The translations under genes and the position numbers were made by a program. Below, piece after piece: positions 6,801-50,272 of a stretch of 64,000 nt of DNA (within the stretch, counting starts at the first letter, position 1; each line of letters opens with the position of its first letter). This stretch comes from Leucoraja ocellata (Eukaryota): assembly GCA_036785375.1 (NCBI GenBank), contig JAWMAR010000006.1, forward strand, positions 19,344,001-19,408,000, given 5' to 3'. The notes beneath the pieces were generated by a model. It made no database searches and was not told the DNA's origin. It was given only the letters and a program-made list of their open reading frames with translations.

Positions 6801-9800
6801 CCTGGCGAGGAGAGGGATGTCGGTTGGCGGGAACTGCTCCAGTACATCAGGTACGTGGGCCAACCCGACTTTGGAAAGGGTGCCAAAACATGGCGGCGCA
6901 TGCCTGTGTGGCTATACAGAAGGAATTTTGCAGTGCAGTTGCACATGTGGGAACTAAAACACCATTGAGCCAACACTCCCCTCCACCCCCCCCCCAAGCC
7001 ATTGCTCCCCCCCACCCCACTCCCCCCCCACCCCCTCTCCTCTCCCCCACCCCCGCTCCTCCCCCCCACCCCACCCCTCTCCTCCCCCCCACCTCACTCC
7101 TCCCCCCCACCTCACTCCTCCCCCCCACCCCACCCCTCTCCTCCGCCCCAACCCACTCCTCCGCCCCCGGGAGTTTGGATTTGCCCCTTACCTGTGATGT
7201 TGGCAGGGCCCAATTCACTGAACAGGAGGACAATGGAGGTGGGTTTGGCTTCATCCGAGTCGATGCACATCTTACGCGTCAGATGCCTCTTCCCGGGTGG
7301 CCAATAAACTTGATTCCTTTCGGAACTGTAATTTTAACATGAACCTGGAACATCGAGGAGACCAGCGTCACTCAGCACGGCGCATTAACTCTGCAGTCAC
7401 AAGAATGTCCATCACCCATCGCCACTCCCAACGGATGGAACCTAATCTCACGTTCCACATCTATTCCCAATCCCTCAATACCCTGGACCAAAACATGTAT
7501 TAATTTGAGTTTTCAACACAGACATTGATAGATTTTTAAATGAAAACAGAAAATGGCAGAAACATTCAGCTGGTTCGGCAGTATCTGTGGGAAAGCAAAC
7601 ACGTCATCCAGGGATAGACGTTACTGGCTTTATCTAGCACTAAATGTTATTCCCTTTATCATGTGTTTGTACTCTGTGGATCACTGGATTGTGATCATGT
7701 GATCAGGTCTTTCCGCTGACTGGTTAGCAGGCAACAAACAGGTTTTCACTGTAGCTCGGCACACGTGACAACAAGCTGAACTCTACGCAACCTCCACCCA
7801 CCCGTTTCGTCCTGTGACGGCCGCGTTTCCCACGTACCTCTGCGCAGCTCTGGAGGTAGTTGTAGACCATGAGAGGGATCTTGGTTTGCTCCCCGCGGAT
7901 CACAAAGCTGGGCAGGGTGAAATCCACAAAGAAGGCCTTGAAGGTGCGGAGCTCGGTGGGCCGGGCGAGTCCCAGGCCCGTCTCCTGGGATAGGCCGACT
8001 GCCTCCGTTACCCAAGTGGTGATGGAGTCCGGAATCTCCACGTGCAGTCGGGCCTCGCCCGTGGAATCGCTGTCAGCGGGTGAATAAAGGCGAGAGGCAT
8101 GCAAGTTTTTAATTAGAGATACAACTGCGCGGAAACAGGCCCTTCAGCCCACCGAGTCCATGCCGACCAGGGTTTGATTCTGACTATGGGTGCCATCTGT
8201 ACTGAGTTTTACGTTCTCCCCGTGACCTGCGTGGGTTTTCTCCGGGTGCTCCGGTTTCCGCCCACACTCCAAAAACATATAGGTTTGTAGGTTGTCGAAG
8301 TGTTCAAGAAGGAATTGCAGATGCTGGAAGATCGAAGGTACACAAAATTGCTGGAGAAACTCAGCGGGTGCAGCAGCATCTATGGAGCGAAGGAAATAGG
8401 CGACGTTTCGGGCCGAAACCTTTCTTCAGACTCGTAAGATCCTTGAGTCTGAGTCCGAGTCTTCAGACTTGAGTCTGAAGAAGGGTTTCGGCCCGAAACG
8501 TCGCCTATTTCCTTCGCTCCATAGATGCTGCTGCACCCGCTGAGTTTCTCCAGCAATTTTGTGTACCTAGGTTTGTAGGTTAATTAGCTTTGGTAAGATT
8601 GTAAATAGTCGGAGAGTGCTAGCGTACAGGGATCGTTGGTTGGCCCGGACTTGGTGAGCCAAAGGGCCTGATTCCGTGCTGTATCTGCAAACTAAACTAA
8701 ACTATTTGTGGCTTCAGGGAGCTGTGTGTTGAGTAGACCATGTGCTGCACAAAGTGTTAAACTGAGTTCTGTGTATTGAGTGGCAAAAACTATTTTGACC
8801 GGTTTTAATCGGAGAGAGCATCAAGCTGAAGCTGTGCTGTGTTGAATGTTAGGTGCAGAGGATTCCTCAATGGGACAATTCCCCTCAATCCTCCCATCCC
8901 TTTACTCAGTGCGGCAAACATGCCTTTCCACTCTAATGCATGCTGCACTCTCTCCAAGCTTTGCAAGGAATTAAGATCAGAATTCCTTTCACCCTTTGGC
9001 TCCAAAGCTGGTAATGTTTTAAATTCTCACATGGGAACACTTAGGCGAGGAATGCAGCAATGTAAAGTGTTGGGAGATATTTTGGCAACGTGTTAAGTGC
9101 TTTGAAGCAATTTACAGTTTTTGAATGATACAAGGCCCACCACATGCTTCGGTTTGTCTTGCAGCATGCACTGGCAGCCGCAGTGATAACATCCTCCTTA
9201 TTGCTTAAGCTGTACTCGGCACTGCTCCCGATACTGCCTGACATAGATACAAACTGCTGGAGTCACTCAGTGGCTCAGGCGACATCTCTGGAGAAAAGGG
9301 GTAGGTGGCCGGGATCCTTCTTCAGGCTTGTGCTTCGGATCGTGAATGAAGTCCAAAGAAGGGTCCCAAAACAAAAACGTCACCCACCCACTTTCTCCAG
9401 AGATGCTGCCTGGCCCGCTGAGTTGCTCCAGCACTTTTGTGTATTAAACCAGCATCCGCAGTTCCTTCTTATTACAACCCGATGTTGCCTGCTCATCTGA
9501 TTTAAACATGGATCTGCGATATTGAGCTGCACAGTCCTTCTAACGCCTTCACCCCCAATCCCTAATGCCCATATTTGTCTCAGCCCACAGATGGACACAA
9601 ACTGCTCAGCGACTCAGCCAGCACCTGTGGAGAAAAAGGACGGGTGATGTTTCGGATCGAGACCCATCTTCAGGAAGCGTGTAGGGAATGAACTGCAGAT
9701 GCTGGTTTAGACACAAAAAGCGGGAGTAACTCAGCGGGTCAGGCAGCATCTCTGGAGAACAGGTGAAGTTTCGGGTCGAGCCCCTTCTTCAGAATTCAGG

Positions 9801-12800
9801 TCTGAAGAAGTGACTCGACCCAAAACATGACCTACTCCTTATCTCCAAAGATGCTGCCTGGCCCGCTGAGTTCTTCCAGCTTTTTGTGTTTTGTTTGCCC
9901 TTCTTCAGGAATAAAGAAGGGTCCCACCCCGAAACATCACCCAGCCTTTTTCTCCAGAGATGCCGACTGCCCCACTGAGTTACACCAGCCATTTGTGTCT
10001 ATATTTGGTATGAACCAGCATCTGCAGTTCCTCGTTTCTATATTTTGGTTCAGTCCAGCCAGCAGCCTCTAAGCCTTTAAGCCTGACATTCTGCAAACTA
10101 GTCTTCAATATCCTGCGGAGTAGCTGGATTCTCAAGTTCAGTTATAGCTCATCGGGAGCCCCGGTATTCCGATTCCCACCATGGGCATTGCTACCAGGAA
10201 CGGGATTTGCATCTACCCCGACCGACTGCCGTACGCCAACGTAAATCCCGACTTCAGTGCTTCTACCTGATGTTGAGACAATGCCAGATCCAGGTTTCTG
10301 GAAAGAAAGTCCTTTTCTTCTTCTCAGCTCTAAGTAGAAAGAAATCAGTTGTGTGTTAGAGGAGAACAGAACATCAAAGGCATCTCACAGGACAGAATCT
10401 CTCCCAGCCATCCCCAAGGTACCCAATCTAGACTTCAGACTTCACTTTAGACTTTGGAGATACAGCGTGGGAACAGGCCCTACGGCCCAGCGAGTCCACG
10501 TGGGTTTTCTCCGGGTGCTCCGGTTTCCTCCCACATTCCAAAGGAGTACAGGTTTGTAGGTTCATTTGGTTTTGGGTAGAAATTGTAAATGGTCCCTAGA
10601 CAGCACTAGTGTACGCGGTTAGTCGTTGGCCGGCACGGACTCGGTGGGCCGAAGGGCCCGTTTCCGCACTGTATCTCTAAACTAAACTAAACTAAAGATG
10701 GACACAAAAAGCTGGAGCTGAAAAAAAGCTGGAGCGCTGTCTGCGGAGGGCGCTCAGCATCGCCAAGGACTGCTCTCACCCCAACCATGGACTGTTTACC
10801 CTCCTACCATCCGGGAGGCGCTACAGGTCTCTCCGTTGCTGAACCAGCAGGTCGAGGAACAGCTTATTTCCGGCGGCTGTCACTCTACTCAACAACGTAC
10901 CTCGGTGACTGCCAATCACCACCCCCCCCCCCCCCCCCCCCCTGAATCTGAATCTGAATCTGAGTAATTCAGCGGGACAGGCAGCATCTCTGGAGAGGAG
11001 GTGACGTTTCGAGACAAGACCGTTCTTCAGACTAGGTCAGGGAAAAGGAAAACTCAACTAAACTGCACAGAGGCACGGCCAGAGAATGACACTGCACAGG
11101 ATCCATCCTGTCCCTACTGCACCTCACTCATTCTACTCCCTTCTACGCCTGGTTTTCTTAAGCCCATTCCCAACCACTAGGCACAGTAGAGGAGACATTT
11201 GACTAATGCTGCTTGTTTTAAATCTATTGATGTTTCTCGGCCGCTGTCCGAGTTCATTCTGATCCATTACCGAGCCAAACAGGCAGGCGGATCACCCAGC
11301 AGCTAAACGTACGGAATTAAACATTTCCATGCGACAGAGGAGGAGGATCACCCGTCAAATCTCTGACAAAAAACATTCCTTCACAAACTTCCCCAGTAAA
11401 TCCATTTTGATTTAGTCCCAGTGTTAGTTTTAGAGATACAGCGTGGAAACAGGCCCCTCGGTCCACAAGTCTCTGACAATCCCATTCCTCGGCAAACATT
11501 TTCTCCCACATTTCCATCCATTCGCACGGCCGATTAATGTACCAACCCACATGACTTGAGGATTTAAGAAGGAACTGCAGATCGAAGGCAGACAAAAATG
11601 CTGGAGAAACTCAGCAGGTACAGCAGCATCTATGGAGCGAAGGAAATAGGCAACGTTTCGGGACGAAACGTTGCCTATTTCCTTCGCTCCATAGATGCTG
11701 CTGCACCCGCTGAGTTTCTCCAGCATTTTTGTGTACCTACCAGTTTAAATTGTTACACTAGTGACAATTTATAGAAGCCAATTATCTGACAAACCTGCAC
11801 GTCTTTGGAACGCAGGAGGATACCGGAGCACCCGGAGAAAATCCAAGGGGTCACAGGGACGGCACCCGAGGTTGCAGGTGGTTCCCGGAGGTTGCAGGTA
11901 GTGGAAGCAGGTAGGGAGACTGACGAAAACCTCCGGGAACCGAACGGAAACCTTGGGTGGGGCGCGAAGTCTCCAGAGGGTTCCGTTCAGGTTTCCTAAG
12001 TGGGACAGGGGCATAACTCTCACCGAGTCCCATCTACCTGCACTCAGACCAGAATGACTTTGGTGGGTAACATAGAAACATAGAAAATAGGTGCAGGAGT
12101 AGAGGCCATTTGGCCCTTCGAGCCTGCACCGCCGTTCAATATGATCATGGCTGATCATCCAACTCAGTATCCTGTACCTGCCTTCTCTCCATAACCCCTG
12201 ATCCCTTTAGCCACAAGGGCCACATCTAACTCCCTCTTAAATATAGCCAACGAACTGGCCTCAACTACCTTCTGTGGCAGAGAATTCCAGAGATTCACCA
12301 CTCTCTGTGTGAAAAATGTTTTCCTCATCTCGGTCCTAAAAGATTTCCCCCTTATCCTTAAATTGTGACCCCTTGTCCTGGACTTCCCCAACATCGGAAA
12401 CAATCTTCCTGCATCTAGCCTGTCCAACCCCTTAAGAATTTTGTAAGTTTCTATAAAATACCCCCTCAATCTTCTAAATTCTAGCGAGTACAAGCCGAGT
12501 CTATCCAGTCTTTCTTCATATGAAAGTCCTGCCAACCCAGGAATCAGTCTGGAGAACCTTCTCTGTACTCCCTCTATGGCAAGAATGTCCTTCCTCAGAT
12601 TAGGAGACCAAAACTGTACGCAATTCTCCAGGTGTGGTCTCTCCAACTGCAGTAGAACCTCCCTGCTCCTATACTCAAATCCTTTTGCTATGAAGAATGA
12701 AAGACAAGGTAAACTAAATGTACAATTCTAAAATGGGGCCAAGGATAGATAGATTATCAACGCCTTTTAGTGAAGACAGTTCAGGTTGAGAATGCTGAAT

Positions 12801-15800
12801 AAAAAAACCACCTTGCGTGAGGCAGAGTTACAGCAAGGAAGTTATGTTAAAACTTCTTGAAATATTAGATAGGATGGAGCCAAAGAATTGTTGTCAATTC
12901 TGGCAACACACCACGGGAATGGTTTCAAAGCCTTGAAGAGGATGCAGAGGGGATTAACCTGATGTTCTCTGGAACGAGAGCCAGTTAAGGTTGAAAAACT
13001 GCTCTGTTCTCTTGAGAACATCGAAACATACGTACAGGGAGTGCCAGTGGTCAGGATCGAACCGGCGTCTCTGGAGCTGTGAGGCAGCAACTCGACTGCT
13101 GCTGCCACGGTGCCTCCCTCAGAGCTTGTGCAGTACTCCGCGTTTCCATGCGACCGAGAAGGCCCTTCGGCCCATCAAGTCTCTGACAATCCCATTCCTC
13201 GGCAAACATTTTCTCCCACATTTCCATCCATTCGCACGGCCGATTAATGTACCAACCCACATGACTTGAGGATTTAAGAAGGAACTGCAGATCGAAGGCA
13301 GACAAAAATGCTGGAGAAACTCAGCGGGTACAGCAGCATCTATGGAGCGAAGGAAATAGGCAACGTTTCGGGACGAAACGTTGCCTATTTCCTTCGCTCC
13401 ATAGATGCTGCTGCACCCGCTGAGTTTCTCCAGCATTTTTGTGTACCTTCAGGTTTGTAGGTTAATTAGCTTTTGTAAAGTGTCCCTAGTGATGGGATTC
13501 AATGGGCCGAAGTGCCCATTTCTATGCTGTATCTCAAAACTAAACTATCTGCTCCCTATACCTCTCTGCAGCCTTTCTCCCTTTAGCCCTGTAAACAGGG
13601 CCTGTTTCCACGCTGTATTGCTAAAAACTAAAACAAAGGGTGAAACACAGGCGGTTTTCTCTCACCTGGGAGTGATCCTTGGCTGGAGAGCTGCGACGAG
13701 GGTCCCGGTGTGGGGCTGGAAGCCAGGCACGGCCTCGTCAGTGTACATCCCGCCATTCTGTCTGTGATTCAGGCTCACTACGTCCGTCATGACCACCAGG
13801 CCCGTTTCCTAGGTAACCGGGGAAGCAGGCGCAGGTCAAAGGGTAGAAGAGCGAAAACAGCTGCCAAATGTCGCTGAGCAACAACATCTGTGGGAACCTG
13901 TACCCCAGTGAGACTCCGCATCTCGAGAACCTATCCCAACCCCATCGGGCAAAAGATATGGAAGTGTGAAAATGCACACCTCCAGAATCAGGGGCAGTTT
14001 TTCCCCCAGCTGCTATCAGGCAACTGAACCATTCTACCAACACCTAGAGAGCTGTCCAGAACTAACAGCTACCTCATTGAAGACACTCAAGACTGCCTTT
14101 GGTCGGACTGACTTAATCTTGCACTAAACGTTATTCCCTATATTATGTATCTGTACACTGCGGATGGCTCGATTGTAATCATGTGTTGTCTTTCCGCTGA
14201 CTGGTTAGCACGCAACAAAAGCTTTTCACTGCGCCTTGGTGCTCGTTACAATAAACTAAACTCAAACTTAATGGGAGTTAATATCTGGAGGTAGCAAAGA
14301 GTCAGTGTCTGCATCACCCCATGACATCCTTATTAATCAAAAATCTGACCACCTCCGCCAGATTCACCACCCTCTGACTAAAGAAATATCTTCTCATCCC
14401 CTTTCTAAAGGAACGTCCTTTTATTCTGAAGCTATGGTTTTTTGGTCCTCGACTCTTGCACTAGTGGAAGCATGGTCACCGCATCCACTCCATCCAGGCT
14501 GTTCTCTATTCGGTTCTGTTGTGCTGCTGCAAGAGAGGATCTCATTGTTCTGTTTCGGTGCGTAGGAGAATAAAACGCTCTCGGCTCTCGAGGCGAGAGT
14601 CAGTGTCTGGCGGGGAGGAGGATGCAGCTGATAACGGAGGTGCGATGCGGGAGGTGGTGCTTACACTGAAGGCAAAGTGGGCGTCCTTGGTGATGTCCCA
14701 GTGCCACGGGAACACGGACGATCTCCGTCTCCGTGACGACAGCCCCGGCCACCAGAAGTGACCATCCTCCTTCGGGATTCCAAAGGCGTCGGAAACGTCG
14801 TAGTCGGCCAGTTCCTGGAAGATCTGGAGAAAGAGCGGACAGGGTTAAAGGTCAGCAGGCAATCAGGCGATGTTCCCTGACCCGGCACTGATTCCAGTGT
14901 CTCCACACCAGGTAGCTCCCACCTACAGGATTCACTGGGGAGACCTGGAGCTTGATGTAGTCGTGGAGTTAATAAGAGTTGGGCGGCACAGTGGCGCAGC
15001 GGTAGAGTTGCTGCCTCACAGCGCCAGAGACCTGGGTTCGATCCTGACCACGGAGCTTCTACTTTCACCCCGTGACCTGCGTGGGTTTTCTCCAGGTGCT
15101 CCAGTTTCCTCCCATACTTCGATGACGTACAAGTTTGTAGGCTAATTGGCTTGGTAAAATTATAAATTCACCCTTGCGCACGTGTGTGGGATGGTGCTAG
15201 TATGCGGGGATCGCTGGTCGACATGGACTCGGGGGGTCAAAGAGCCTGTTTCCTCATTGTATCTCTAAACTCAACTAAAGCAACTAGGTTATATGGTACA
15301 GAAACAGGCCCTTCTGCCCAACTCTTCCATGCTGACCCAAAAGTGTCTTCCTGAGCTCGTCTTATTTGACCCGATTTGGCGCATCTCCATCCAAACCTTT
15401 GTTATCTATGCACTTGAACAAATGTCTTTTAAACATTGTAATTAATATCACATCCACCACATGCTCATTTATCATGCCCACCACCCTCTGCGTCTCTTCC
15501 AACCCTAAGGGAAGAAAAGATTGTGACCATCCACATTATCTATGGCCCCTCATGATTTTATCCACCTCGATTCGGTCACTCCTCAGCAACCTGACCCCCC
15601 TGTCATGGTGCGGTCTCACCGACACCTTGTTCAATTGTAACATGAAGTCCCAACTCTTGTGCCCAGAGCCCCGTGGATCTTCATGGTTGAGGGGTTGAAT
15701 CGTCACAGAACTGAAGGAAGTTAAAATACAGAAAACCCCAACCTAAATAAATAAATGATCAGTCTGGATGGGTGGAATGCCCATTTGCTGTTGCTGTGGC

Positions 15801-18800
15801 CCATGGAGGAATGGCTTCATAAGCACCCAAGTCATTGGAGCGGAATCAGGCCATTCGGCCCATTGAGTCTACTCCACCATTCATTCATGGCTGATCTATC
15901 TCTCCCTCACAACCCCATTCATAGAAACATAGAAATTAGGTGCAGGAGTAGGCCATTCGGCCCTTCGAGCCTGCACCGCCATTCAATATGATCATGGCTG
16001 ATCATCCAACTCAGTATCCCGTACCTGCCTTCTCTCCATACCCTCTGATCCCCTTAGCCACAAGGGCCACATCTAACTCCCTCTTAAATATAGCCAATGA
16101 ACTGTACTCGACTACCCTGTGGCAGAGAGTTCCAGAGATTCACCACTCTCTGTGTGAAAAAAGTTCTTCTCATCTCTACTGCCTTCTCCTCCCATCTCCC
16201 CATAACCCCTGACGCCCGTACTAATCAACAACCTATCCATCTCCAGTTTAAAAATACCTAATGACCGCCTCAACAGCCGTCTGTGGCAATGAATTCCACA
16301 GATTCACCACCCTCTGGCTAAAGAAATGACTCCTCATCTCCTTCCTAAAGGTACAAAAACTTCAAAGCGTCTCCTTGGCGCTGGTGTGTAATTGAGACTT
16401 GAGTTTAGGTTTATAACGGACACATATGAGGGTGGGCACAGTGCTGCAGCTGTAGCCAGAGACACGGTTTTGATCCTGACTACGGATGCTGCCTGTGCGG
16501 AGTTTGCACGTTCCCCCTGTGACCGTGTAGGTTTACTCCGGGTGCTCTGGTTTCCTCTCACAGTCCAAAGACGTGCAGGTTTGTAGGTCAATCGCCATTG
16601 GTAACAAATTGGAAATTGTCAATAGACAGTAGACAACAGGTGCAGGAGTAGGCCATTCGGCCCTTCGAGCCAGCACCGCCATTCAATGTGATCATGGCTG
16701 ATCATCCCCAATCAGTACCCCGTTCCTGCCTTCTCCCCATATCCCCTGACTCCGCTATTTGTCCCAAGTGCGTTGGGTAGAACTAGGATATGCCGCGGAC
16801 TCTGTGGACCGAAGGGCCTGCCTCCACGCTGTATCGCTAACGTCTAGAGAGGACAGGCTGTGACTACCTTGTCCGTGGTGAGCTGGAAGCCGGGTTTGAG
16901 CAGATACACGCTCTTGTCCACGGTTGCCACGCAAACGCACGTCCGTGGCTCGCCCTTCACTGCCACGCTGATGAGGTCGCCAGGCTTTGTCTTGTTGGAG
17001 GAGAGTGAGATCGAGATCTGCACATTGAATCACAAAAAAATAACAGGTACAATTCATAAATCCGGCACAGTTACCTCACCCCCCCCCCCACCCTCCAAAC
17101 CTCACGGCACCCCCCAAGCCATGTGAGGATTTTCCCAGCCCAGGTGACCAGGCAGGTTCCTGGGCCATCACTTGGCCAGTTTCAAATGTTATAAATTAGT
17201 TCCAATCCGAAACGTCAAGAATGTTTCATTGCCATATAAACTCCACATATCCTCATCTTCGCCATCTCTGTATTCCCGACAGTTTTTACAGCTCCCAGAT
17301 CTTTGTGCTTCTCCCAATACTGGACATTGCTGTATCTCCTCTTCCCTTCCCCATAGCTAACTGATCCATTCTACATTTTCCTTGACCTTTGTCTCCTTTA
17401 AACCGTCGTTTTCACACCTTCACCTTCCATATCTCTACGTCCCCCTCTCCCCTGACTTGGTCTGAAGAAGGGTCTCGACCCGAAACGTCACCCATTCCTC
17501 TCCGGAGATGCTGCCTGTCCCGCTGAGTTACTGCAGCATTTTGTGTCTAACCCTTATTGCTGTCTGTATATTGGAGGCATCTGGATCCCAGATTGTAGAA
17601 CTTTCCTTTCATAAACCTCTGCATCTCACCACCTTGAACCCCCTTTCAAACCCTTGTTTTAATCCACCCTTCCCCACCAACCATGCAGTTGATTCACAGA
17701 GTCAGTCGACACAGAGACGGGGCCCTTGTACTCAGCTGCCCTCATGTGCGAGATGCAGGAAGATTGTTCCCGATGTTGGGGAAGTCCAGGACAAGGGGTC
17801 ACAGCTTAAGGATAAGGGGGAAATCCTTGAAATCCTTTAAAACCGAGATGAGAAGAACTTTTTTCACACAGAGAGTGGTGAATCTCTGAAACTCTCTGCC
17901 ACAGAGGGTAGTTGAGGCCAGTTCATTGGCTATATTTAAGAGGGAGTTAGATGTGGCCCTTGTGGCTAAGGGGATCAGGGGGTATGGAGAGAAGGCAGGT
18001 ACGGGATACTGAGTTGGATGATCAGCCATGATCATATTGAATGGCGGTGCAGGCTCGAAGGGCCGAATGGCCTACTCCTGCACGTAATTTCTATGTTTCT
18101 ATGTGTAGCTCAGTGTCAGAGTTAGTTTGCCGACACTCTATGCAAGTTTAAGAAAGAACTGCAGATGCTGGAAAAATCGAAGGTAGACAAAAATGCTGGA
18201 GAAACTCAGTGGGTTAGTTAGTTTGTTTAGTTTATTGTCACGTGTACAGTGAAAAGCTTGTGTTGCTTGATAACCAATCAGCAGAAAGACAAACACACAA
18301 TTACAATCGAGCCAATTACAGTGTATAGATAGATACATGATTAGGAATAACGTTTAGAGCAAGGTTGTGTCGAAGTAGAGATATAAGAGCGTGGAGCGAT
18401 TGTAATATGTGATTGCAGATCTGCTTTTATATTATTGTAGGTGATAGATATTTGCAGGCTGCTGTTGTTGCAAACGCACCTTGTTCTCGTAGGACGGCTG
18501 GACTGGAACTTGGATGCTGTCGGTGATGCCCTCGCCATTGTCTCGCACGTAGTACAGGAGCAGGCGGCTGACGGGGCTCATGTTGTGCGTGACCGTGAAG
18601 TGGATGTAGGTGGTGCACACGCCAACCTCGCTGGCTGGAGACGCAGGCCGCTCTGAGAAGGAAGAGAGAGGTACAACTCCATTCATCTGCCTGACCACAC
18701 TGTCTCCCGCTCCCTCCCTCCCTCCCTCCACCTGACCACACTGTCTCCCACTGCACCTCTGCCCCATCTCCGTTCTGTCCATCTCAGCCTCCCTCAGTCC

Positions 18801-21800
18801 AATGACCGCTCCGCCCAAATCTCCATTCCTTCTTCCGACTCTCCCTCCCTCCGTCTGATCATCCACCTCTCTGTCTGACCTCCCCTTAGTGCAAGCCTCC
18901 CTCCCTATCCCAACCTCCCTCCTCTTCCCTCTCTGTCCAACCCACTCTCTCTGACCCTCCCTCCCTCTGCCTAACCCTCCATCTCCAGCCTTCCCTCTCT
19001 CCTTTGGACCCTCTGTCCCTTCTGTTCTCCATTCTATCTGGCCCTCCCTCCCTCCTTGACCACTTGGTCCCCTCCGGCCGATCCTCCGTCCCTCCCTTCC
19101 ATCCGCCCCTGGCCCTGATGCTCACTGTGCCTGATCCACTCTACCACTTCCTTTCACGGGTCCATTCCTTCCCACTGACCCTCTCTATCTGACTCTCCCT
19201 CTCTCAACAATCCTCTCTTCCTCCTTCCACCTCCATCTGACCCCCCCCCCCTCCACCCTCGTGCCCGACCTTCAGCCCACCCGGTCGGACTCACGGTTCA
19301 GTGGGCTCTGCGACGATTGTTTCTTCTTGTCGAAGATGACGGTGGCCCTCCTGCTGCGCTGCTGGGTGGCGCTGGCCGGCTGCATGCCTGTCCTCACAAT
19401 GTTGCCCCGCGAGGCTATCTCGTAGTGCAAGGCAAAGTCACAGGGGCAGGTGGATTTCACTGGGATCCAAGCCTCTTCCCCCACCTGGAGCAGTCAAGAG
19501 GTGAGAGAGCTTCATGAGACTCGGGGACTGAGGCTGCCACTGACTCCAGCCACACGGGGGCAGCAGGGGTAACGAGCGGCCGGCCTTGGCGGGGTTTATA
19601 GCGGCTTTGGGCGGCACAGTGGCGCAGCGATAGAGTTGCTGCCTCACAGCTGCAGAGACCCAGCTTCAAACCTGACTACGGGTTTGCACATTCTCCCCGT
19701 GACCGCGTGGGTTTTCTCCGGGTGCTCCGGTTTCCTCCCACACTCCAAAGATCCACAGGTTTGTACTTTAATTGGCTTTGGTAAAAATTGTAAATTGTTT
19801 GTCGCGGGTAGGATAGAACTAGTGTATAGGGTGATCGCTGGTCAGTGCGGACTCGGTGGGCCGAAGGGCCTGTTTTCACACAGTATCTCTAACGTCTAAA
19901 GCAGCAAGACAGGCCAGGAGGTGACTCCCAGAACTGAGCTCCAGAGGGAAATGTCAGCGATGTCCCATAGTCTACGGTGGGGAAAGGCTGCAGGGAGGAC
20001 CCAGCTCACTTGTACAATGCCGGAGTGGGTCCTGGAATATTCACCAATGGCCTGGTTGGTATACAGGCATTGCTTCCGAGTTTGTAGATAAACCAAAACT
20101 CGGAAATATAATGAACAATGACAAGAATACTAACAGAATGCAGGTGAACAGAGATTGCTGTAGGATTGGACCACCACAGGGATCAGTTTACTTTAGATTT
20201 CAGGGGTACAACGTGGAAACACGACCTTCAGCCCATCGAGTCTGCGCCAACCAGCGATCACCCCGTATACTAGCATTATCCTACGTACCTGGGGCAGTGT
20301 ACAATTTACAGAAGCCAATTAACCTTCAAATGTGGGGCGTCTTTGGAGTGTGGGAGGAAGCCAGAGCGCCCGGAGAAAACCCACGCGGTCACAGGGGGAA
20401 CGTGCAAACTCCGTACTGACAGCACCCCGTAGTCAGGATCGAACCTGGGTCTCTTTCACTGTAAGGCAGCAACTCTACCGCTGTGCTGGCCCAAAATTAG
20501 TAATATGGAGTGAATCATTTTGGTTGGAAGGATGAAAGGCAAGAATGTATAAATGTACAATTTTAAAATGGGGCCAAGAATAGATAGATTATCAACGTCT
20601 TTGAAGGTTCAGCCTGAGAATGCTGATTAAATAAGAATCCCTGACCTCGCGTGAGGCAGAGCTACAGCGAGGAAGTTATGTTAAAACCTCATGAAATAGG
20701 CTGCAGCCAAAGAATTGTGTTCAACTTTGGCAACACACCTCGGGAACGATTTCAAAGCCTTGAAGAGGATTAACCTGAAGTTGACTGGAACGAGGAACGT
20801 CCGATGACTTCGGAGAGACCTGTTAAAACTCCTCTGTTCCCTTCAGAAGAGAGAGGCTTAAGAGGGCATTTAACAAGGTGTCGAAAGTAACGAGAGGTTT
20901 TGGCAGAGAAACAAAACGAGATATGGCTTCCAGGGGCAGGGGGGGTTTGATGGCCAGCGGACACAGATTATGACGATCAGATAACAAGAGTTGTTGTGAT
21001 CACGAACCTGCCTGTCGCAAAAGGGCAGAGGGATTTTCAAAGGAAACCGAGCAAGTATTTTACAGGCAAACGAACCTCAGAGTTCAAGGGAAAGAACAAG
21101 GGAGTGGGACAAGCAGAAACGTTCACTGAGAGATGGAGAACAGATTCACTAGGATGAATAAATCACTCACGGTTTGAGCATTATAAGGACCGCGTCTGTG
21201 GTGTTGGTGATCAGGAGTAAAATTTGGTCGTTCGGCCCATCGAGTCTACTCCGCCATTCAATCATAGCTGATCTCTTTCTCCCTCCTAACCCCATTTTCA
21301 CGCCTTCCCCCCATAACCCCGTACTAATCAAGAATCTATCTATAGGTACACAAAAATGCTGGAGAACTCAGCGGGTGCAGCGGCATCTATGGAGTGAAGG
21401 GAATAGCAACGTTTCAGGCCGAAACGTTGCCTATTTCCTTCCCTGAGTTTCTCCAGCATTTTTGTCTACCTTTGATTTTCCAGCATCTGCAGTTCCTTCT
21501 TAAACACAAGAATCTATCTATCTCTGCCTTAAAAATATCCATTGACTTGGCCTCCACAGCCTTCGGTGGCAAGGAATACCACAGATTCACCACCCTCTGA
21601 CTAAAGAGATTCCTCTTCATCTCCTTCCTATGACTTCTGGTCCTAGACTCTCCCACTGGTGGAAGCATCCTCTCCACATCCACTCCATCCAGTTATTTGC
21701 AAGTTTTAATCCCTGACTGAACCTTCGCTGGAGAATCAAGCCTTAGTTTCCAAATATCTTGCAATGTTTCCTTTTATTGTTTAGAAATACAGCATGGAAA

Positions 21801-25443: not shown

Positions 25444-25954
25444 CTGCAGGGTTGGAAGAGAAGGAATGTGTGGGAACGTCAACGGCACCTTCATAAGGTC
25501 ATAGGAGCAGAATTTGGCCCTTCAGCCCATCAAGTCTACTACCACCACTCAATCATGGCTGATCTTTCCCTCCCTTCTAACCCAATTCTCCCGCCTTTTC
25601 CTCATAACCCCTGACACCCGTACTAATCAAGAATCTGTCTATCTCTGCCTTAAAAATATCCACTGACTTGGCCTCCACAACCTCCTGTGGCAAAGAATTC
25701 CACAGATTCACCACCCTCTGACCAAAGAAGGGTTCTCTGACATTTCATAGAGTCACACTGCATAGAAACAGGCCCTTCGGTCCAACTTGTCCACAGCGAC
25801 CAACATGTCCCATCTATACAAGTCCCACAAGCCTGCGTTTGGCCCATATCCCTCTAAACCTGTCCGACCCATGTACCTGCCCAAATGTGTCTTAAACTTT
25901 GCAATAGTCCCTGCCTCGACTACCTTCTCCGGCAACTTGTCCCGTACACCTAAG

Positions 25955-26405
25955 ATAGATGCAAAATGCTGGAGTAACTCAACAGGACAGGCAGCATCTC
26001 AGCCGAGGAGGAAAGGGTGATGTTTTGGGTTGAGACCATTCTGCACACTGAGAGTCGGGGAGGGAAGACACAGAGATAAGGAAGTGCAAGGTGTGGGAAT
26101 GAGACATCAAAGGTAATGGAGATCAAGGAAAATGTAGATCATTGTTAGCTGGGAGAAGGTAACAACAAAGCAGAGATAAAATGTAATCCGGGACAGTCAG
26201 GCTGGTCGGAAAACTGGGAAGGGGGAGGGATGGAGTGAGGGGGAAAGCAAGGATTACTTGAAGTTAGAGAAGTCAAATATTCATGCCGCTGGGGTGCAAG
26301 CTGCCAAACGAAATATTAGGTGCTGTTCGTCCAATTTGCAGTGGGCCTCACTCCGACAATGGAGGGGGCCCAGGACAGAAAGATCAGCGTGAGAATGGGA
26401 GGGGG
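25955..26405 (-). mobile_element. Penelope-like element 3' remnant: GIY-YIG C-terminus + 3'UTR + terminal repeat
   Basis: Minus strand reads DLSVLGPLHCRSEAHCKLDEQHLIFRL/GSLHPSGMNI/DFSNFK*, then a pyrimidine-rich UTR, a degenerate hammerhead and the GAGATGCTGCC...GAGTTACTCCAGCA repeat. Confidence 0.78.
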
Positions 26406-26611
26406 AGTTAAAGTAGACTCAAAATGCTGGAGTAACTCAGCTGGTGAGGCAGCATCTCTGGAGAGTAGGAATGGCCGAGTGTTTAGTAAATGGGAGATCA
26501 GGTAGGTTCAGGTGGACTGAGCGGACTCTGTGGAGGGAAATGAACAGATGACATCTCGGATCGGGATCCTTCTTCAGCTGCAATGCATTTAACCTACACT
26601 GTCCCTCCCTG

Positions 26612-27555: not shown

Positions 27556-30500
27556 GTGAATCTGCCCACCGTGCTCTGGGGTGGAGTGGGGGTGGAGTGG
27601 GGGGGTTGGGTGGGTGGATGTGGTGTGGAGGGGTTGTATTGTGGGGGGGGTGGGTTGGGCTGGGGAGAGTGAATGGGGAGTGGGTGGGGTGGGGGGAGTG
27701 AGGGAGCAGTGAGGTGTATTGGGGGAGTGGGGTTGTATTGGGTGGGGCATGGATGGGTAGGGTGGGGTGGGAGTATTGGGGTTGAGTGGGTGGGTGGGGT
27801 GTGGGGGTGTTGGATTGGGGGGTGTGGGGTGGGTGTATCGGGTGTGGGGGGGTTAGGCTGGGGAGGTTGGGGTGGGGGGAGTGAGGGGCGATGAGACGTG
27901 TTGGGTGGGTGGAGTGTATTGGGTGTGGGGGGTTGTATTAGAGGGGGGTGGGGTGTATGTATGGGGGGGTTGTATTGGGGGGAGGGTGTGGGACATGATA
28001 CTATATGGATGGGAACAGTGGGACTGGCTGGGCGACTAGGTGTGAACTACATATGGGGAGTGAGGTGGGTGAGCTATTTTCACCGTTCACCTATTTCCAT
28101 CCTCTCCACCAGCCAACAAAATCCCAGAAGAAGAGGCGGAAACGCAATCGAAACGTAAGTTCTCACTCAGCGTTCCTCCCCGCCTTGAGATTGCCAACCT
28201 GCCTGCCCAATCAATTCAGGTCAATTCAATGGCAACAGATAACAATCCACCCAGTGGCAGTGGTAACCGGATAACACTGTTGTGGTGTGGGATTTGGAAA
28301 CGGGATGGCTGCAGGCCTGTTTGGTGGGTGCGTCTGGAGGATATTAACCCAGCCTCCGGCACGCTGGTGGGGGGGGGAGTGGGTGCTGGTCACGCTGATG
28401 AAGGTCAAGGCAGATTTGTTTGACTTCTTTTCAAATGCTGCCACACGTGAGTGGGTTTGGGGAGGGGGGAGGGGGGGTGCATTTGTGCTTCAGTTTTGTT
28501 GCGTGGAGGGGAAGGTGCCCCCCCCCCCCGTGGGCATGGTGTGGAGGTGCCCTGTGTAGCCATGGAAGGTGGCACGGTGGTAGATTTGCTTCCTCACAGT
28601 GCCAGGGACCCAGTGTTTGATCCTGACTACGGGTGCTGCCGGTACGGAGTTTGCACGTTCTCCCCGTGACCTGCGTGGGTTTTCTCCGGGTGCTCCGGTT
28701 TTCTCCCACTCTACAGACGTACAGGTTTGTAGGTTGATTGGCTTGGTGTAAGTGTACAACTTGTCTCTGGTGTGTGTAGGATAGGATTGGTGTGCGGGGA
28801 TCGCTGGTCGGCGCGGACTCGGTGGGCCGAAGGGCCTGTTTCCGCGCTGTATCTCTAAACTAAACTAAACTTTGAAGAGCGGCAACTGTTGCGAATCTGT
28901 GGAACTCTTTGCCAGAGAAGGCCAAACCAATGGATATTTTTAAGGCAGGGATAGATAGATTCTTGATTACTACGGGTGTCAGGGGTTAGGAGGGAGACGG
29001 ATTGAATGTGTGTAGTAGATTTTATTTTAATTTTAATTTTTTTTAATTCTATATTTCGAACAGAATAAAAGAATAAAAAGCAAGTGTGAAACAGCGTACA
29101 CAAAACAAAACAACAGTGTCATAAACAATATCTGTAAATAAATGACATTGTATGTGTCCAACTTGATGGGCCAAATGGCCTAATTCTGCTCCTATAACCT
29201 ATGAGCTTACGAAGTGTTTCCCTGATGGAGGGGTTGTGACTTTGGTGCATTCACTCTTTCAGAAGGAGGTTTACGGGCACATGTTCAGCAACTACCAGGT
29301 GAACATCCGCCAGTCGTGTGAGCAGTGTTCGTCCTACATCTGGCCCATGGAGAAGGCTCTGCTCTGCTGCAGTAAGTCCTCGCACCATCAGGGTTGGCCT
29401 TGGCTGTGAATCACAGTGGTGGGACCCAATGGTGGGGGTTTGGTTGAAAGGAAGAACTGGAGGAACTCAGCGGGCCAGGCAGCATCGGGATAGCTGATGT
29501 TTGGGTCGTGGTTCTTCTTCAGACTGATTGGGGGGGGGCAGTTCCACAGTTCACAAGGGAGGGGCAGGGAGAGGTGAAAACTGGGAGGCCAGTTCTTTAA
29601 CCCTGGTTGATTCAATAGACAATGGACAATAGGTGCAGGAGGAGGCCATTCGGCCCTTCGAGCCAGCACCGCCATTCAATGTGACCATGGCTGATCATCC
29701 ACAATCAGTACCCCGTTCCTGCCTTCTCCCCATATCCTCTGACTCCGCTATCTTTAAGAGCCCTATCTAGCTCTCTCTTGAAAGCATCCAGAGAACCTGC
29801 CTCCACCGCCCTCTGAGGCAGAGAATTCCACAGACTCACCACTCTTTGTGAGAAAAAGTGTTTCCTCGTCTCCGTTCTAAATGGCTTACCCCTTATTATT
29901 AAACTGTGGCCCCTGGTTCTGGACTCCCAACATTGGGTGCCAAATATATATTGCCTAAATTAGGACTGATTCTCCCACTGACCTCCCCCTTCGTTGATCC
30001 ATATGATTGAGAGGGAGTTAACACATGGTGCTTCTCTTCTGTACTCTGAATTTTCCTTTGAAAGTCACCGTCAGACCTGCTCCCATTCAACTCCCATTCA
30101 GATTATGACAGTCCCGCCATCCCGGGAATTAACCTTGTAAACCTACGCTGCACCCCCTCAATAGCAAGAATGTCCCTCCTCAAATTAGGACTCTCTTCTC
30201 AATCAGTCTAGTTTAAAGGTGAGAGGGGCAAAGTTTAAAGGGGATGTACGGGGGTAAGTGCACGTGCTGCCGGGGGGTGGTGGTGGCGGAGGCAAGAGTC
30301 AAAGAGTGTTTTATTGTCATATGCCCGGATGGGACAATGAAATCCTTACTTGCTGCAGCACAACAGAATATGTGAACATAGAACATAATGGGGTGTAAGA
30401 GAAAAAAATATTCAAAAAGTTAAATTAATACAAATATATATTGCAATAATAATAATAGTATTTTGCAGTTCAGAGCTCAGAGCTTATCCGATGTTGTGTT

Positions 30501-33500
30501 TAATAGCCTGATGGCTGTCATGAAGATACGTTAGTGACATTTAAGAGGCATTTAGTGGGCACATTGTGTAAGGAATGGGTGGGTATACATCATGCGCAGG
30601 CAGATGAAATTAGTTTCCCTTGGCATCATGTTTGGCACAGAGATTGCATTTCGTTGTCTCTGTACTGTACACTGACAATGACAATTAAAATTGAATCTGA
30701 ATCTGAATCTGATCAGAGATTGTGGGCCGAATGGCCTGCCCCTGCGCGGCACCGTTCTGTGTTCTACCTCGAGCTGTGCAGGATTTAGCGGGGAGATTGG
30801 TTTTGTTTGTGGGAGCCCAGCTGGGGGGGTGATGACGACCTGTTTGCTTTCTGCCCTCAGCCTGCAAGATGACGTGTCACAAGAAATGCCTGGTGAAGAT
30901 TCAACATGCCTGCCAGTCCGGCTGCAACAAGGTGCGTGCGCGCTTTCGCAGGGCCCCCCGCGAGGCCGACATAGACGGCCCAGGATCCCGCGCGGTGCTC
31001 GTGCCGTGAGACGCTGCGCCGCCGCGCCGGAGCCTCGCACAGCGCACGCCGGTCGCAACTCGGCTCTCCACGCCCCACAACATCCCTAAATACACCCACC
31101 CCCTCGTAACTTGGTGCTTCCCTCCTTCGCTGGGAGGATTCACTCCTCCATCCTTGCATGTGTCACAGAAACATGGAAAATAGGAGCAGGAGGAGGCCAT
31201 TCGGCCCTTCGAGCCAGCACCGCCATTCAATACGATCATGGCTGATCATCCGTCTGGCTGATTCTATTCCTGCTCTCTCCCCTCCTGCCCCTCGGCTGTG
31301 GCTCCTGGCTGATTCTCCACCCCCCACCCCCCCATGCCGACCACTCTGCCCGTTCACAGTGATATTACCCCAACTCACCTCTTAGACAATAGACAATAGT
31401 CCAGGAGTAGGCCATTCGGCCCCTCGAGCCAGCACCGCCATTCAATGTGACCATGGCTGATCATCCACAATCATTACCCCGTTCCTGCCTTCTCTTGTCT
31501 GGGTTTTGTTGGAACTGACTGCTTGTGTCCCCTCCCCCCCCCCCCCCCTTTTAAATTTTGTATAAAACAGAACACACAGCTCTGCCGCAGTTGACCAGGC
31601 CAGCAGTCCAGGCCACTATGTAGATGCAGCCACCTCACCTATTGTTCAAGAAGGAACTACTGATGCTAGAGAATCGAAGGTAGACAAAATTGCTGGAGGA
31701 ACTCAGCGGGTGCGGCAGCATCTATGGAGCAGAGGAAATAGGCGACGTTTCATAGAAACATAGAAAATAGGTGCAGGAGTAGAGGCCATTCGGCCCTTCG
31801 AGCCTGCACCGCCATTCAATATGATCATGGCTGATCATCCAACTCGGTATCCCATCCCTGCCTTCTCTCCATACCCCCTGATGCTTTTAGCCACAAGGGC
31901 CACATCTAACTCCATCTTAAATATAGCCAATGAACTGGCCCCAACTACCTTCTGTGGCAGAGAATTCCACAGATTCACCACTCTCTGTGTGAAAAATGAT
32001 TTTCTCATTTTGGTTGTAAAAGATTTCCCCTTATCCTTAAACTGTGACCCCTTGTTCTGGACTTGCCCAACATCGGGAACAATCTTCCTGCATCTAGCCT
32101 GTCCAACCCTTAAGAATGTTGTAAGTTTCTATAAGATCCCCCCTCAATCTTCTAAATTCTAGCGCGTACAAGCCGAGTCTATCCAGTCTTTCTTCATATG
32201 AGAGTGAAGATTGCTTTCCTTCCCGTCGACAGAACGACACGGATGGGGCGCTGCGGCATTTCGGGGTGGAGGTGTCGCGGCTGACGGACGAGAACCAGAC
32301 GGTGCCCCTGGTGCTGGAGAAGCTGCTGGAGTTTGTGGAAATGCACGGACTCTACGCCGAGGGCATTTACCGCAAGTCGGGGGCGGCCAACAAGATGAAG
32401 GAACTGCGGCAACTGCTGGATGACGGTGGGTTCAGGAGCACGGAGTGAACCCTCGTGTCGGGCCTCGGTGTTGTTTAGTTCTGCTTTCCTTTCGTCAAGT
32501 CAATTTTATTTATATAGCACATTTAATAAAACAACCCTCGTTGGCCAACGGGCTTTACATTGGTATAAGGAAAATATCACAAACAACAGTGGTTGGTAGA
32601 TTAAATACAAACATCACTACATTAGGAGGTGCAACTCCAGAGCCAATAAAATCATGGGAGACCCCTTCCACCCCTGCAACGGACTGTTCCAGCTGCTACG
32701 GTCAGGCAAACGCCTCCGTTGCCATGCTGTGAGAACGGAGAGGTTGAGAAGGAGTTCTTCCCGGAGACCATTCGGACTGTAAACTCCGATCTCACCAGGG
32801 ACTAATGTTTACTGGACCACTCTACTGCTTTTTTTTTTTAAATTGCTGTGGGTTTTTTTCCCTTTTTCCTTCCGCCCACAATATTTAATATGTAAAAGAA
32901 TATGTGATTCTGTTCCATTCTGTTTGTAGTTTGTTTGTCTTTTTGAACAAAGTCCGCGAGCATTGCCACTTTTCATTCCACTGCACATCTCGTATGTGTA
33001 TGCGAAGAATAAACTTGACTTGACTTGACACTACATACATATAGTCCTCGCTCAGAGGACTTCAAGAAAGGCTTGGGAGTACAGATGAGTTTTAAGTCTC
33101 GACTTAAAGGAGTTGATGGAGGGGGCAGTTCTGATGGGAAGGGGGATGCTGCTGTTCCACAGTCTAGGAGCTGCAACCGCAAAGGCGCGGTCGCCCTGAG
33201 CTTATGCCTAGACCGCGGGATATTCAGCAGCTCCAAGTCGGCCGATCTGAGGGACCTGGAGATTGTGTGGTGGGTGAGCAGACTTTTAATGAAGGTGGGG
33301 ACAAGCCCATTGAGGGCTTTGTAGACAGTTTAGCTGGGAAGAAGATAAGACTTTATTGCCTTCCAGCACAGTGTGCTGCGGTGGATGTCCATGTTAAATT
33401 CTAGGTAGTTGTGTGTCTTGTTCCTTTTTCTTGGTTTGACTGAAAATGGCAAATCTAATTCTTTGCACGTTCCTCTGACATACTTGGCTAGTAAATTTCC

Positions 33501-34877
33501 TTGTTCCCGATGTTGGGGGAGTCCAGAACCAGGGGCCACAGTTTAAGAATAAGGTGCAAGCCATTTAGAACGGAGACGAGGAAACACCTTTTCACAGAGA
33601 GAGTGGTGAGTCTGTGGTATTCTCTACCTCAGAGGGCGGTGGAGGCCGGTTCTCTGGATACTTTCGAGATAGGGCTCTTAAAGATAGCAGAGTCCGGGTA
33701 TATGGGGAGAAGGCAGGAACGGGGTACAGATTGGGGATGATCAGCCATGATCACATTGGATGGCGGTGCTGGCTCGAAGGGCCAGATGGCCTACTCCTGC
33801 ACCTATTGTCTATTGTCATCCTTGTAAATTAGTTGTAGTTTGGTTGCGGTTTTGCGTTCAGTTTTAGATTTGTTTTAGCTTCATGTTTTAGTTCCAGTTC
33901 ACTGTCATGGGGACTCTACTGTAAGAGGCTGCTTTTGTTGCTTGCGTACTATCCCATCAGCGGAAAGACCAGACTTGATTACCATCAAGCCGTCCACACT
34001 GTGCAGTTTAATGGTAGAAACTGGTAGAACTTCAGGCAACCTTTGCTTTCCCTCTCCCTCTCTCTCCCTCTCCTTCCCTCCCTCGCCCTGGTTCTCCCAC
34101 CATCATCACTGTCCTCATTAATGTTACTGGTCGTGTACCTCGTGGTAACCTTCCCCTCTGCCACCTCTGCCTACATTTCCTTGACCATCTTCTGCTTTGA
34201 TCTGTCCTTTTCACACCTTGCACCTTTCCACATCTCTAGTTTCCCTCTCCCCTGAATGGTGGTCTGAAACATGGAAAATAGGTGCAGGAGGAGGCCATTC
34301 GGCCCTTCGAGCCAGCACCGCCATTCATTGTGATCATGGCTGATCGTCCCCTATCAATAACCCGTGCCTGCCTTCTGCTCATATCCCTTGACTCCACTAG
34401 CCCCTACAGCTCTATTTAACTCGCTTAAATCCATCCAGTGACTTGGCCTCCACTACCCTCTGTGGCAGGGAATTCCACAAATTCACAACTCTCTGGGTGA
34501 AAAAGTTTTTTCTCACCTCAGTCTTAAATGACCTCCCCTTTATTCTAAGACTGTGGCCCCTACTTTACTTGACTTTGTCTTGCACGGAATGCTCCTGTAC
34601 CGAGGTATAGTGAAAATCTTTTGTGCTGCGTGCTATCCAGTCAGCGGAAAGACTAGACTCGGTGACAAACAAACCCGTCCACAGTGTACAGATGCAGGAT
34701 AAAGGGAACAGCAGCCGAGTATAGTCCGATTACAGATAGCCCGAGGGTCTCCACTGAGGTGGATGGGAGGCCAGGACCGCTCTCTGGTTGGGTGATAGGA
34801 TGCTTCAGTTGGCTGATAACAGCTGGGAAGAAACTGTCCCTGAACCTGTACTCGCGGGTCTTTTGAAGGTTGAGTGG

Positions 34878-34908
<31 letters not shown>

Positions 34909-48580: not shown

Positions 48581-50238
48581 AAGACCTATATATACTTCTA
48601 GATATAAATTTCCGTGCAAATAAAAAGGATATGATGCATTTAGAAACTTCCTCTGATGGATTTGAAATGCTCTTCACCGACACTCTTGCTGGAATCCTAC
48701 AGAGATAAATCATGTTCATAACTGTGCCAAAACTTTGCGTCGTCGGAAATCTGCCATTCTCTTCTGAACGTTTTTTTTCCAGAAAAGGGGGGGAGGTGTC
48801 ATAGTTTTGGATTGTTTCTGGAAGAGACTGGTTGGTTATAAGTTGGCTGAATCCTGGCTTGTTGGAGTGTGGAGTCCTCCTGCATTCCACTCGTTGGATT
48901 TAATTTCCGCCGCGCTGTTTAATCCGAGGGGTTTGGAACAAGATTTCTGCAAAAGCTCACGATTTTTATCTTGTATTAGAACTGCTCAATTACACTCGAA
49001 TATATCTGTAAAGTGGAGAGGGGGTTAATATGTTGAAGGAGAATCGGGGAGGGGGTGGGTGCATCAAGAACATTCAATAATTCCCAAGTTTAGCAACGAG
49101 CATGACATAATTGTTTTTCTATTACCTTTGTGAAATGTTCTCAGCAGTCTACGAGTACTTGATAATAAACGGGTATTAATAAATGTGTTTTTGTGGATGC
49201 AGTGGCTCAGATTTGGACCTTCATGGATTAAAGGGTTCATGCTGCAACATTAATCCTCGCAGTGAATTGATTTTTCGCATCTGGTATAAAAAATCAGTAC
49301 ATTTGCATGGCTCTGAGTTCGTGGTCAAATAATAATACACTTGTATAGCATTTCCAACGTAATGAATTGACCCAAGGAATTTAAGAGTGTTCTCAAATGG
49401 AATAAAATGCTTCCTGGCCAGATGAAAGAGAGAAGGGTAAAGTTTTGGGATAGTATTCTAGAGCACAAGAGGCCAGAATCTGAGGGAAATGTTCATGTTC
49501 GTAAGCCCTAGGAGCAGAACTAGGCCATTCGGCCCATCGACCACTCCGCCATTCAATCATGGCTAGTCAATCTTTCAACCCTATGCTCCAACCTTCTCCC
49601 CATAACCCTTGACACCCTTACTAATCTAGAATTGTTCAATCTCCGCCTTAAAAATACTCAATGACTTGGCCTCCATAGCCGTCTGTGGCAAAGTACATTG
49701 CGAAGATTCATTTATTAATCAGTGCGTTTTCCAGGAGGATTCCATTGCTGTAGAATATTCTATATCAGAGCACATTGGGTGAAGAGCTTTGCTGATGATG
49801 GGGCACTTTTCCGAGTTTTGTACCAAATCTAACCATCACCACAAGGCACTATCTCAGATTTTCTTATCTAATTGATATTTAGTAATGAGCAATGTTACCT
49901 GCTGACATTTATTAGCCAAGGAATTTCGTCAGTCAGAGAGAGGGTAGTGAATCTCTGGAATTCATTGCCGTTGACAGCTGTGGAGGCCAAGTCAAGACGG
50001 AGATTGACCAATTCTTGATTAGTAATGGTGCCACGGGTTATGTGAAAAAGGCAGAAAAATGGGATTGAGAGGGAAAGATAGATCAGCCGCAATTGAATGG
50101 CGGAGAGTATACTCAATGGGCTGTTTCTGCTCCTATGATTTATGAATATCCGAAATGGCCACAGAAATACTTGCCACTAACATTTCTATCCTGAATAAAA
50201 GTTTTTTTTTAAATGGCTGTCCAAATCAGGAAATTACC

Positions 50239-50272
50239 GGTCTGAAGAAGGGTCTCGACCCGAAATGTCACC
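50239..50272 (+). ncRNA. Minimal hammerhead ribozyme motif copy
   Basis: GGT-CTGAAGA-A-GGGTCTCGACCC-GAAA-TGTC-ACC. Confidence 0.58.

Follow-up and report, generated by a model that had tools for sequence, protein, structure and literature searches.

Minimal type I hammerhead ribozymes (min-HHRs) were described in the pLTRs of metazoan Penelope-like elements (PLEs) by Cervera & De la Peña in 2014 (PMC4209133). According to that paper they consist of a CUGANGA box followed by an extra H, a G10.1-C11.1 pair, GAAA, a palindromic 15.2/16.2, an NUH triplet and a short stem I, and they lie in pLTRs mostly as solo copies or opposite-strand pairs. All of these features recur in the family described below; the 56 motifs of its Fig. 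S3 include none from a cartilaginous fish. The same paper reports that metazoan min-HHRs cut weakly even as dimers, and the review PMC6765202 credits dimer cleavage to Lünse et al. For the element PAc (Poseidon, Anolis carolinensis), PMC11167929 describes a hammerhead in the pLTR that cuts only with the element's protein, with two tail-defining 3' end sites downstream, an arrangement that we also find; insertion in vitro was unaffected by hammerhead mutants, so cleavage was not needed for it.

Two further groups of elements are close to ours. Neptune-clade EN+ PLEs, as presented in PMC8557442 and PMC3846280, have a single ORF with a reverse transcriptase (RT) and, at the C-terminus, a GIY-YIG domain joined by a Zn-finger-like linker, and show partial tandems, an inverted 5' pLTR, an optional 30-40-bp tail, target-site duplications (TSDs) and an initiator (Inr)-like pLTR motif. 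Non-LTR retrozymes (PMC7229834; bioRxiv 10.64898/2026.07.22.740005) are described as PLE-related, very high in copy number and endowed with a type I hammerhead; they are small head-to-tail tandem units. We analysed a 64,000-nt stretch of the Leucoraja ocellata genome (the window), in which a sequence-only reading had placed a minimal hammerhead within an abundant repeat. The literature covered gave no description of this family in cartilaginous fish; the 2026 bioRxiv preprint includes one chondrichthyan genome.

A minimal hammerhead in an abundant repeat

The motif is real and lies where it had been placed (Table 1); on the plus strand it reads GGT CTGAAGA A GGGT CTCG ACCC GAAA CG TC ACC. It sits in a truncated insertion flanked by a candidate 8-bp TSD (17326-17333 and 17556-17563), short enough that chance may account for it. 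From 89 anchored copies we made a profile that has no match in reversed DNA; in the window it picks out 46 copies or fragments, 24 of them on the minus and 22 on the plus strand. The repeat unit measures ~95 nt from the CUGA box, or ~130 nt with its optional tail.

Table 1. Coordinates of the hammerhead, its copies and their surroundings (window positions unless a locus is named)
Feature	Position	Strand	Basis or comment
CPAMD8-type exons: MG4, A2M_BRD, A2M, Methyltransf_FA, TED, in order	694-23395	-	Pfam
Minimal type I hammerhead	17459-17492	+	fits min-HHR consensus of PMC4209133 Fig. S3
Stem I, 5' strand	17459-17461	+	
CUGAAGA	17462-17468	+	C3 = 17462
Extra A	17469	+	
Stem II	17470-17481	+	
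GAAA	17482-17485	+	
Palindromic CG	17486-17487	+	
U16.1	17488	+	
C17	17489	+	predicted cut after C17
Stem I, 3' strand	17490-17492	+	
5'-truncated PLE insertion, 3' UTR/pLTR end only, holding the hammerhead	17334-17555	+	homology, genomic copies (~17331-17549)
Pyrimidine-rich pLTR/3' UTR segment, ORF stop to hammerhead	17334-17458	+	
Conserved pLTR segment up to first 3' end site	17493-17551	+	17459 copy without tail
Second subfamily, motif intact	8470-8568	+	C3 = 8475; 2-bp stem I
Inverted partner in head-to-head pair	8336-8435	-	G10.1 changed to A
Decayed copy	9590-9674	-	palindrome and stem I lost
Head-to-head pair, both copies decayed	9707-9891		
Decayed copy	10962-11034	-	stem II broken
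Fold-back pair joined at palindrome inside stem II/GAAA	11587-11738		without CUGA box
Similar fold-back pairs	13297-13448, 21344-21471, 50632-50782		
PLE fragment: EN C-terminus (26526-26260), then decayed hammerhead end (26051-25953)	25953-26526	-	tblastn with P0001, E=5e-14
PLE fragment: GIY-YIG remnant (40293-40093), then UTR and hammerhead end (39787-39689)	39689-40293	-	stem II broken
Copy with core and stem II	50237-50335	+	palindrome CG changed to TG
Decayed copy	51101-51195	+	C11.1 changed
Young family of PLEs, ORFs intact (1221-aa class)	L061:4584-8282, L062, L063, L065, L066, L067		

All nine copies listed in the sequence-only reading were recovered. Every feature is kept only by those with C3 at 17462(+) and 8475(+); a U-G replaces the CG palindrome in copy 50242(+), and in the remaining six stem II, stem III or stem I is broken. 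The second-subfamily stem II, GGGT/TTCG/GCCC, is present at 8483-8494 as claimed. The 3-bp stem I reported for the 17459 copy is there as well, as a private change in a family that has A-C at that position (193/269 copies). The statement that the subfamilies differ while keeping their pairing did not survive as evidence of covariation, since in the genome they differ by one-sided U-A/U-G changes only. Four subfamily differences fall inside the motif (U-A/U-G twice, loop C/U, and C17/U17), all of them compatible with the fold.

The hammerhead models of Rfam miss the motif: no hammerhead family was among the 20 matches at E<=5, and only spurious miRNA-like matches appeared, on the fold-back pairs. 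A family-independent hammerhead descriptor gave 37 matches in 599 kb and none in reversed and complemented controls. Its 60 commonest matches in the sampled loci contained no other hammerhead family, a survey that rare families would escape. The window also holds a second very abundant repeat family, unrelated to the motif, at 12103-12402, 17830-18100 and other positions (D1-D4), which we take to resemble LINE 3' ends or SINEs.

The element that carries the motif

Some copies of the motif are preceded by the C-terminus of an ORF, two such remnants lying in the window itself, and genome searches led from there to frames encoding RT and GIY-YIG domains. In many subfamilies the motif lies 82-218 nt past the stop of such an ORF. 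Among 73 distinct ORF C-termini, from the loci and the window, 52 are followed within 230 nt by a motif matched by regular expression; among the remaining 21, several are truncated or carry a degenerate motif copy. One young family has intact 1221-aa ORFs in 3.95-kb head-to-tail units that are 97-99.7% identical and has probably been active recently. Each unit holds one motif, 119 nt after the ORF stop and 164 nt, counted from C3, before the next ATG, whereas the PAc ORF starts in stem II (PMC11167929). A short tandem repeat lies between the upstream pLTR end and the ORF of one young copy and is read in frame (L072:2556-3200).

Pfam found RVT_1 in the 1221-aa protein at E=1.4e-6 and GIY-YIG weakly, at E=0.012. 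The protein also has a DKG motif and a CxxxxCxxC linker (CGRSRCNTC at residues ~1089-1097 of P0001). Such a cysteine linker is a criterion for the Neptune clade (PMC8557442), and on this motif, not on a tree, we class the element as a putative Neptune-type PLE; Nematis also has the linker. The hallmarks of EN+ PLEs are present: a single RT ORF with C-terminal GIY-YIG, partial tandems, an inverted 5' copy, a tail and TSDs. Copies end at two 3' sites ~35 nt apart, a ~35-nt optional tail being present in 80 of 225, and 122 of 270 stand in head-to-head pairs. Compared with the Neptune-clade PLEs of PMC8557442 and PMC3846280, the ORF has a long proline-rich N-terminal insert, variable in length within the young family, and its start lies clear of the pLTR end.

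The proposal of a very high-copy PLE-derived hammerhead is thus borne out, the motif being tied to intact RT and GIY-YIG ORFs and to covarying relatives (see below). The companion label of a retrozyme-like system does not fit. The tandems that we found are 3.95-kb coding units and not the small units of retrozymes, and the short copies are dispersed, truncated PLE ends, solo or often head-to-head.

Copy number and decay

The 3.44-Gb genome contains 15,546 exact matches to a 31-mer from the repeat and none to the reversed control. The profile found 605 copies in 140 ten-kb stretches (1.4 Mb) taken at round coordinates, mostly on large contigs, a sample that is not strictly random; we estimate ~1.5 million end copies genome-wide, with a standard error of ~7%. 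The motif is spanned by 292 of the 605. Among these the core, CUGANGA...GAAA...UH, is intact in 123, 73 of which also keep stem II, 48 the palindrome as well and 37 a 2-bp stem I in addition, and hence every feature; 6 of these 37 close the cut site with 3 bp. The corresponding estimate is ~90,000 genome copies with every feature. Both estimates are far above the ~9,000 copies given for X. tropicalis in PMC4209133.

The palindromic 15.2/16.2 is CG in 244 of 501 copies, most of the others reflecting CpG decay. G12, which lies in a CpG of its own, carries a mutation in 32% of copies. CpG sites in the core are mutated as often as, or more often than, other CpG sites. Broadly, dispersed copies decay like dead insertions. 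Core and downstream positions did not differ in conservation in the first 599 kb (p=0.33), and in the larger sample the pooled core positions were somewhat better conserved (5.2% versus 7.5% changed, p=8e-5). Base-matched comparisons gave p=0.03 for G5/G8 and p=0.13 or 0.003 for GAAA, with U and C alike. Because these base-matched tests are mixed, weak selection may act on core bases in dispersed copies; the extra conservation may be explained by biased alignment and by differences among source elements.

Relatives and covariation

Searches with the PLE protein yielded 1,663 relatives among 7,985 scored candidates, and none in the viral contigs searched. From 80 metagenome loci, where the relatives in host DNA show 41-66% identity in the best segment, we examined the 31 with a match to or near the C-terminus, 30 of which had enough downstream DNA. 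In 12 of these 30 the motif follows 89-135 nt after the ORF match; 4 more have a near match and 14 none; the relaxed descriptor also matched 4 of 31 in-ORF control segments. One relative family, including L241 and L254, matches the Acropora digitifera Neptune motif of PMC4209133 Fig. S3, which is nearly the same as ours.

We aligned 16 motifs, 5 from the genome and 11 from relatives in about four families. Five of the ten pairs change on both sides, namely every one of the four pairs in stem I and a single pair in stem II, and the covariation score was 0.426 against 0.216 for shuffled alignments (0/500), with slid controls at or below 0.083. As the aligned sequences are related, these changes count few events, not many. 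The extra nucleotide before stem II and the G10.1-C11.1 pair are present throughout, the latter as G-C in 16/16. Covariation of the stems, which subfamilies within the genome do not show, is therefore seen across relatives.

Folding, RNA and the host gene

Folding predictions give a ground state other than the hammerhead, with P(stem II) at 0.01-0.18 and P(stem I) at <=0.03. Beyond the cut site lies an alternative predicted partner for the 3' bases of stem II, and a hairpin predicted for the young family, GUUUCG/CGAAAC, buries GAAA; some relatives are predicted to fold stem II much better. In 49-nt constructs the active dimer is predicted to lie 14-22 kcal/mol above the dimer minimum free energy (MFE). 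Since published metazoan min-HHRs cut weakly as dimers, and that of PAc needs the element's protein (PMC11167929), an active dimer or a protein-assisted fold is plausible here too.

The motif could be a vestigial hammerhead, kept only because its bases serve as a promoter or RT-binding sequence. The third stem I pair of the relatives has been lost from the genome's family, the young family has strengthened the hairpin that buries GAAA, and PAc inserted in vitro regardless of hammerhead mutations (PMC11167929), all of which suit a relic. Against this, every subfamily difference in the motif respects the fold, and a stem I of 2 bp falls within the min-HHR range of PMC4209133, which lists such versions for Culex, Oikopleura and D. 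virilis; the U-G or U-A closing and the absent third pair are points of difference from the min-HHRs described there. We consider the vestigial reading unlikely, with perhaps one chance in a few of being correct.

The motif is abundant and deeply covered in poly(A) and single-cell RNA of related or identical species. Read ends do not pile up at the cut site in poly(A)/oligo-dT and single-cell RNA, libraries that are ill-suited to cleavage mapping. Stranded single-cell reads around the motif are 4-8 times more often antisense than sense (L061:4438-4557; L047:600-790), and over parts of the ORF end the two are about equal; the antisense excess likely stems from internal oligo-dT priming on the purine-rich antisense tract.

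The domain order found by Pfam, in a scan that took in 144 of 382 candidate frames, fits the assignment of a CPAMD8 gene to the minus strand. The sequence-only reading had suggested that minus-strand copies, being in the sense of its pre-mRNA, could cut introns. More generally, intact dispersed copies that pair by way of the ACGU palindrome might work as ribozymes on host pre-mRNA. The pool of copies with all features is large (37/605 in 1.4 Mb), another copy on the same strand lies no more than 400 nt away for 88 of 270, and the motif is plentiful in RNA with its antisense bias. Yet the four listed copies in the sense of CPAMD8 are broken, the 17459 copy is antisense to the gene, and copies within the gene are split evenly (12 sense, 12 antisense). 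The lack of a read-end pile-up, albeit in unsuitable libraries, the energetic cost predicted for the active dimer, the poor dimer cutting in PMC4209133, the protein requirement in PMC11167929 and the possible priming origin of the antisense reads point the same way, and we regard intron cutting as very improbable.

The four fold-back pairs of the window (Table 1) would give long double-stranded RNA in introns. On the opposite strand, MYO9B-like C1 and RhoGAP exons (29167-38224(+); best PDB match myosin-IXb, E=6e-19) begin only ~6 kb from the CPAMD8 MG4 exon, and an N stretch separates the two. Both genes seem to lack their 5' parts, which makes a large gap or a misjoin likely.

The 5' boundary of short copies

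Among 228 sampled copies with a CUGA box, 166 lack the upstream UTR. We mapped 504 copy 5' ends relative to C3: 166 fall at -7 to +1, 9 at -19 to -8, and only 4, with no pile-up, at the cut site (+28). The missing boundary at the cut site argues against linear cleaved RNA as the template. The pile-up at the hammerhead edge is several nucleotides wide and coincides also with the near-palindrome TCAGTCTGA. Conservation among short copies holds at -1, -2 and -3 and falls off beyond. A TSD of at least 9 nt flanks 21 of 102 short copies and none of 102 controls; the first base after it lies at -5 to 0 in 14 of the 21, most often at -3 (6/21).

The base at -3 is the A of an initiator-like YCAGTCT. 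The initiator consensus is YYANWYY; of 64 ORF-linked copies, 49 match it with the A placed at -3, against at most 8 at any other offset; GC/CACCC-like boxes lie upstream in 42 of the 64. Four relatives (L229, L230, L241 and L254) have a TATA-like box at about -37, ~30 nt before an initiator-like motif at -7 from C3. An Inr-like TCACT with a TATA box in a PLE pLTR has a precedent in PMC3846280. Against a start at -3 stands D. virilis Penelope, whose start site can be placed ~125 nt upstream of the hammerhead from PMC2377424 together with Table S1 of PMC4209133, and so does the finding that all intact ORFs examined are preceded by an upstream partial unit and not by a 5' end at -3. The simplest reading, and a likely one, is that transcription starts at the ribozyme's edge and that short copies arise by internal priming on the 5' pLTR.

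The main rival is that short copies begin at this edge through fold-back of the cDNA or a template switch at TCAGTCTGA, or through a stall at the C-rich tract. Head-to-head junctions in the genome sample do peak at other internal palindromes (+15 and +40/41), and self-priming at palindromes has been proposed for PLEs (PMC3846280). The same boundary, however, is found in non-inverted copies with clean TSDs, and relatives that lack the palindrome keep the initiator-like motif at -3 or -7, some with a TATA-like box. We consider this origin possible but rather doubtful.

A third explanation treats the AG before CUGA as a splice acceptor, as PMC4209133 describes for D. virilis Penelope, with splicing remodelling stem I. 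In its favour, most subfamilies have a GT at the ORF stop, and the polypyrimidine tract ends with CAG. One subfamily has no such GT, however, short copies keep the AG, and no GT..AG joint is found among the RNA joints listed (15 of 114 and 15 of 24), the 4-read joint near the site in X23 not starting with GT. With one donor-side pattern, the genome gave 0 spliced DNA copies, and we judge splicing here improbable.

Two narrower candidates were rejected. An extra G at -4, such as a cap might leave, was seen in 4 of 14 non-inverted copies, which is not significant (p=0.46), and in 9 of 14 inverted ones (p=0.048). Cleavage at an AUC just upstream of A(-3) as the source of the 5' ends would break the pairing rules at 15.2 and 2.2.

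A model for the repeat and its meaning

We consider it probable that the repeat is the pLTR end of a Neptune-type PLE with the known minimal type I hammerhead, and that its dispersed copies are inert products of insertion and not ribozymes of host RNA. The element protein would nick DNA and begin cDNA synthesis within the RNA, at either of the two end sites, steps shown for the anole PLE (PMC11167929). If transcription starts 3 nt ahead of CUGA, at the A of YCAGTCT, then RT primed on the 5' pLTR would run off after 100-135 nt, giving the abundant short copies. The ribozyme would matter only for the element's own RNA. Because of the 2-bp stem I and the predicted hairpin that buries GAAA, it would cleave this RNA poorly, either through dimerisation of tandem units or with the element protein.

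A bolder version, which we put forward tentatively and think less likely than not to hold in full, is that capped RNA starts at the first base of stem I and that short copies are strong-stop-like cDNAs inserted alone. The ribozyme would then be a cap-proximal switch that the competing hairpin holds off; on binding of a second unit or of the element protein, it would decap the mRNA by a cut 31 nt from the start.

As a feature of PLEs the motif has been published before; our finding adds a lineage and a scale, not a new system. Its use lies in the sample size, since more than a million insertions in this genome record where PLE reverse transcription starts and stops. Their boundaries suggest that transcription starts at the edge of the ribozyme, and a young family with intact ORFs makes the questions of transcription start and template testable in vitro.
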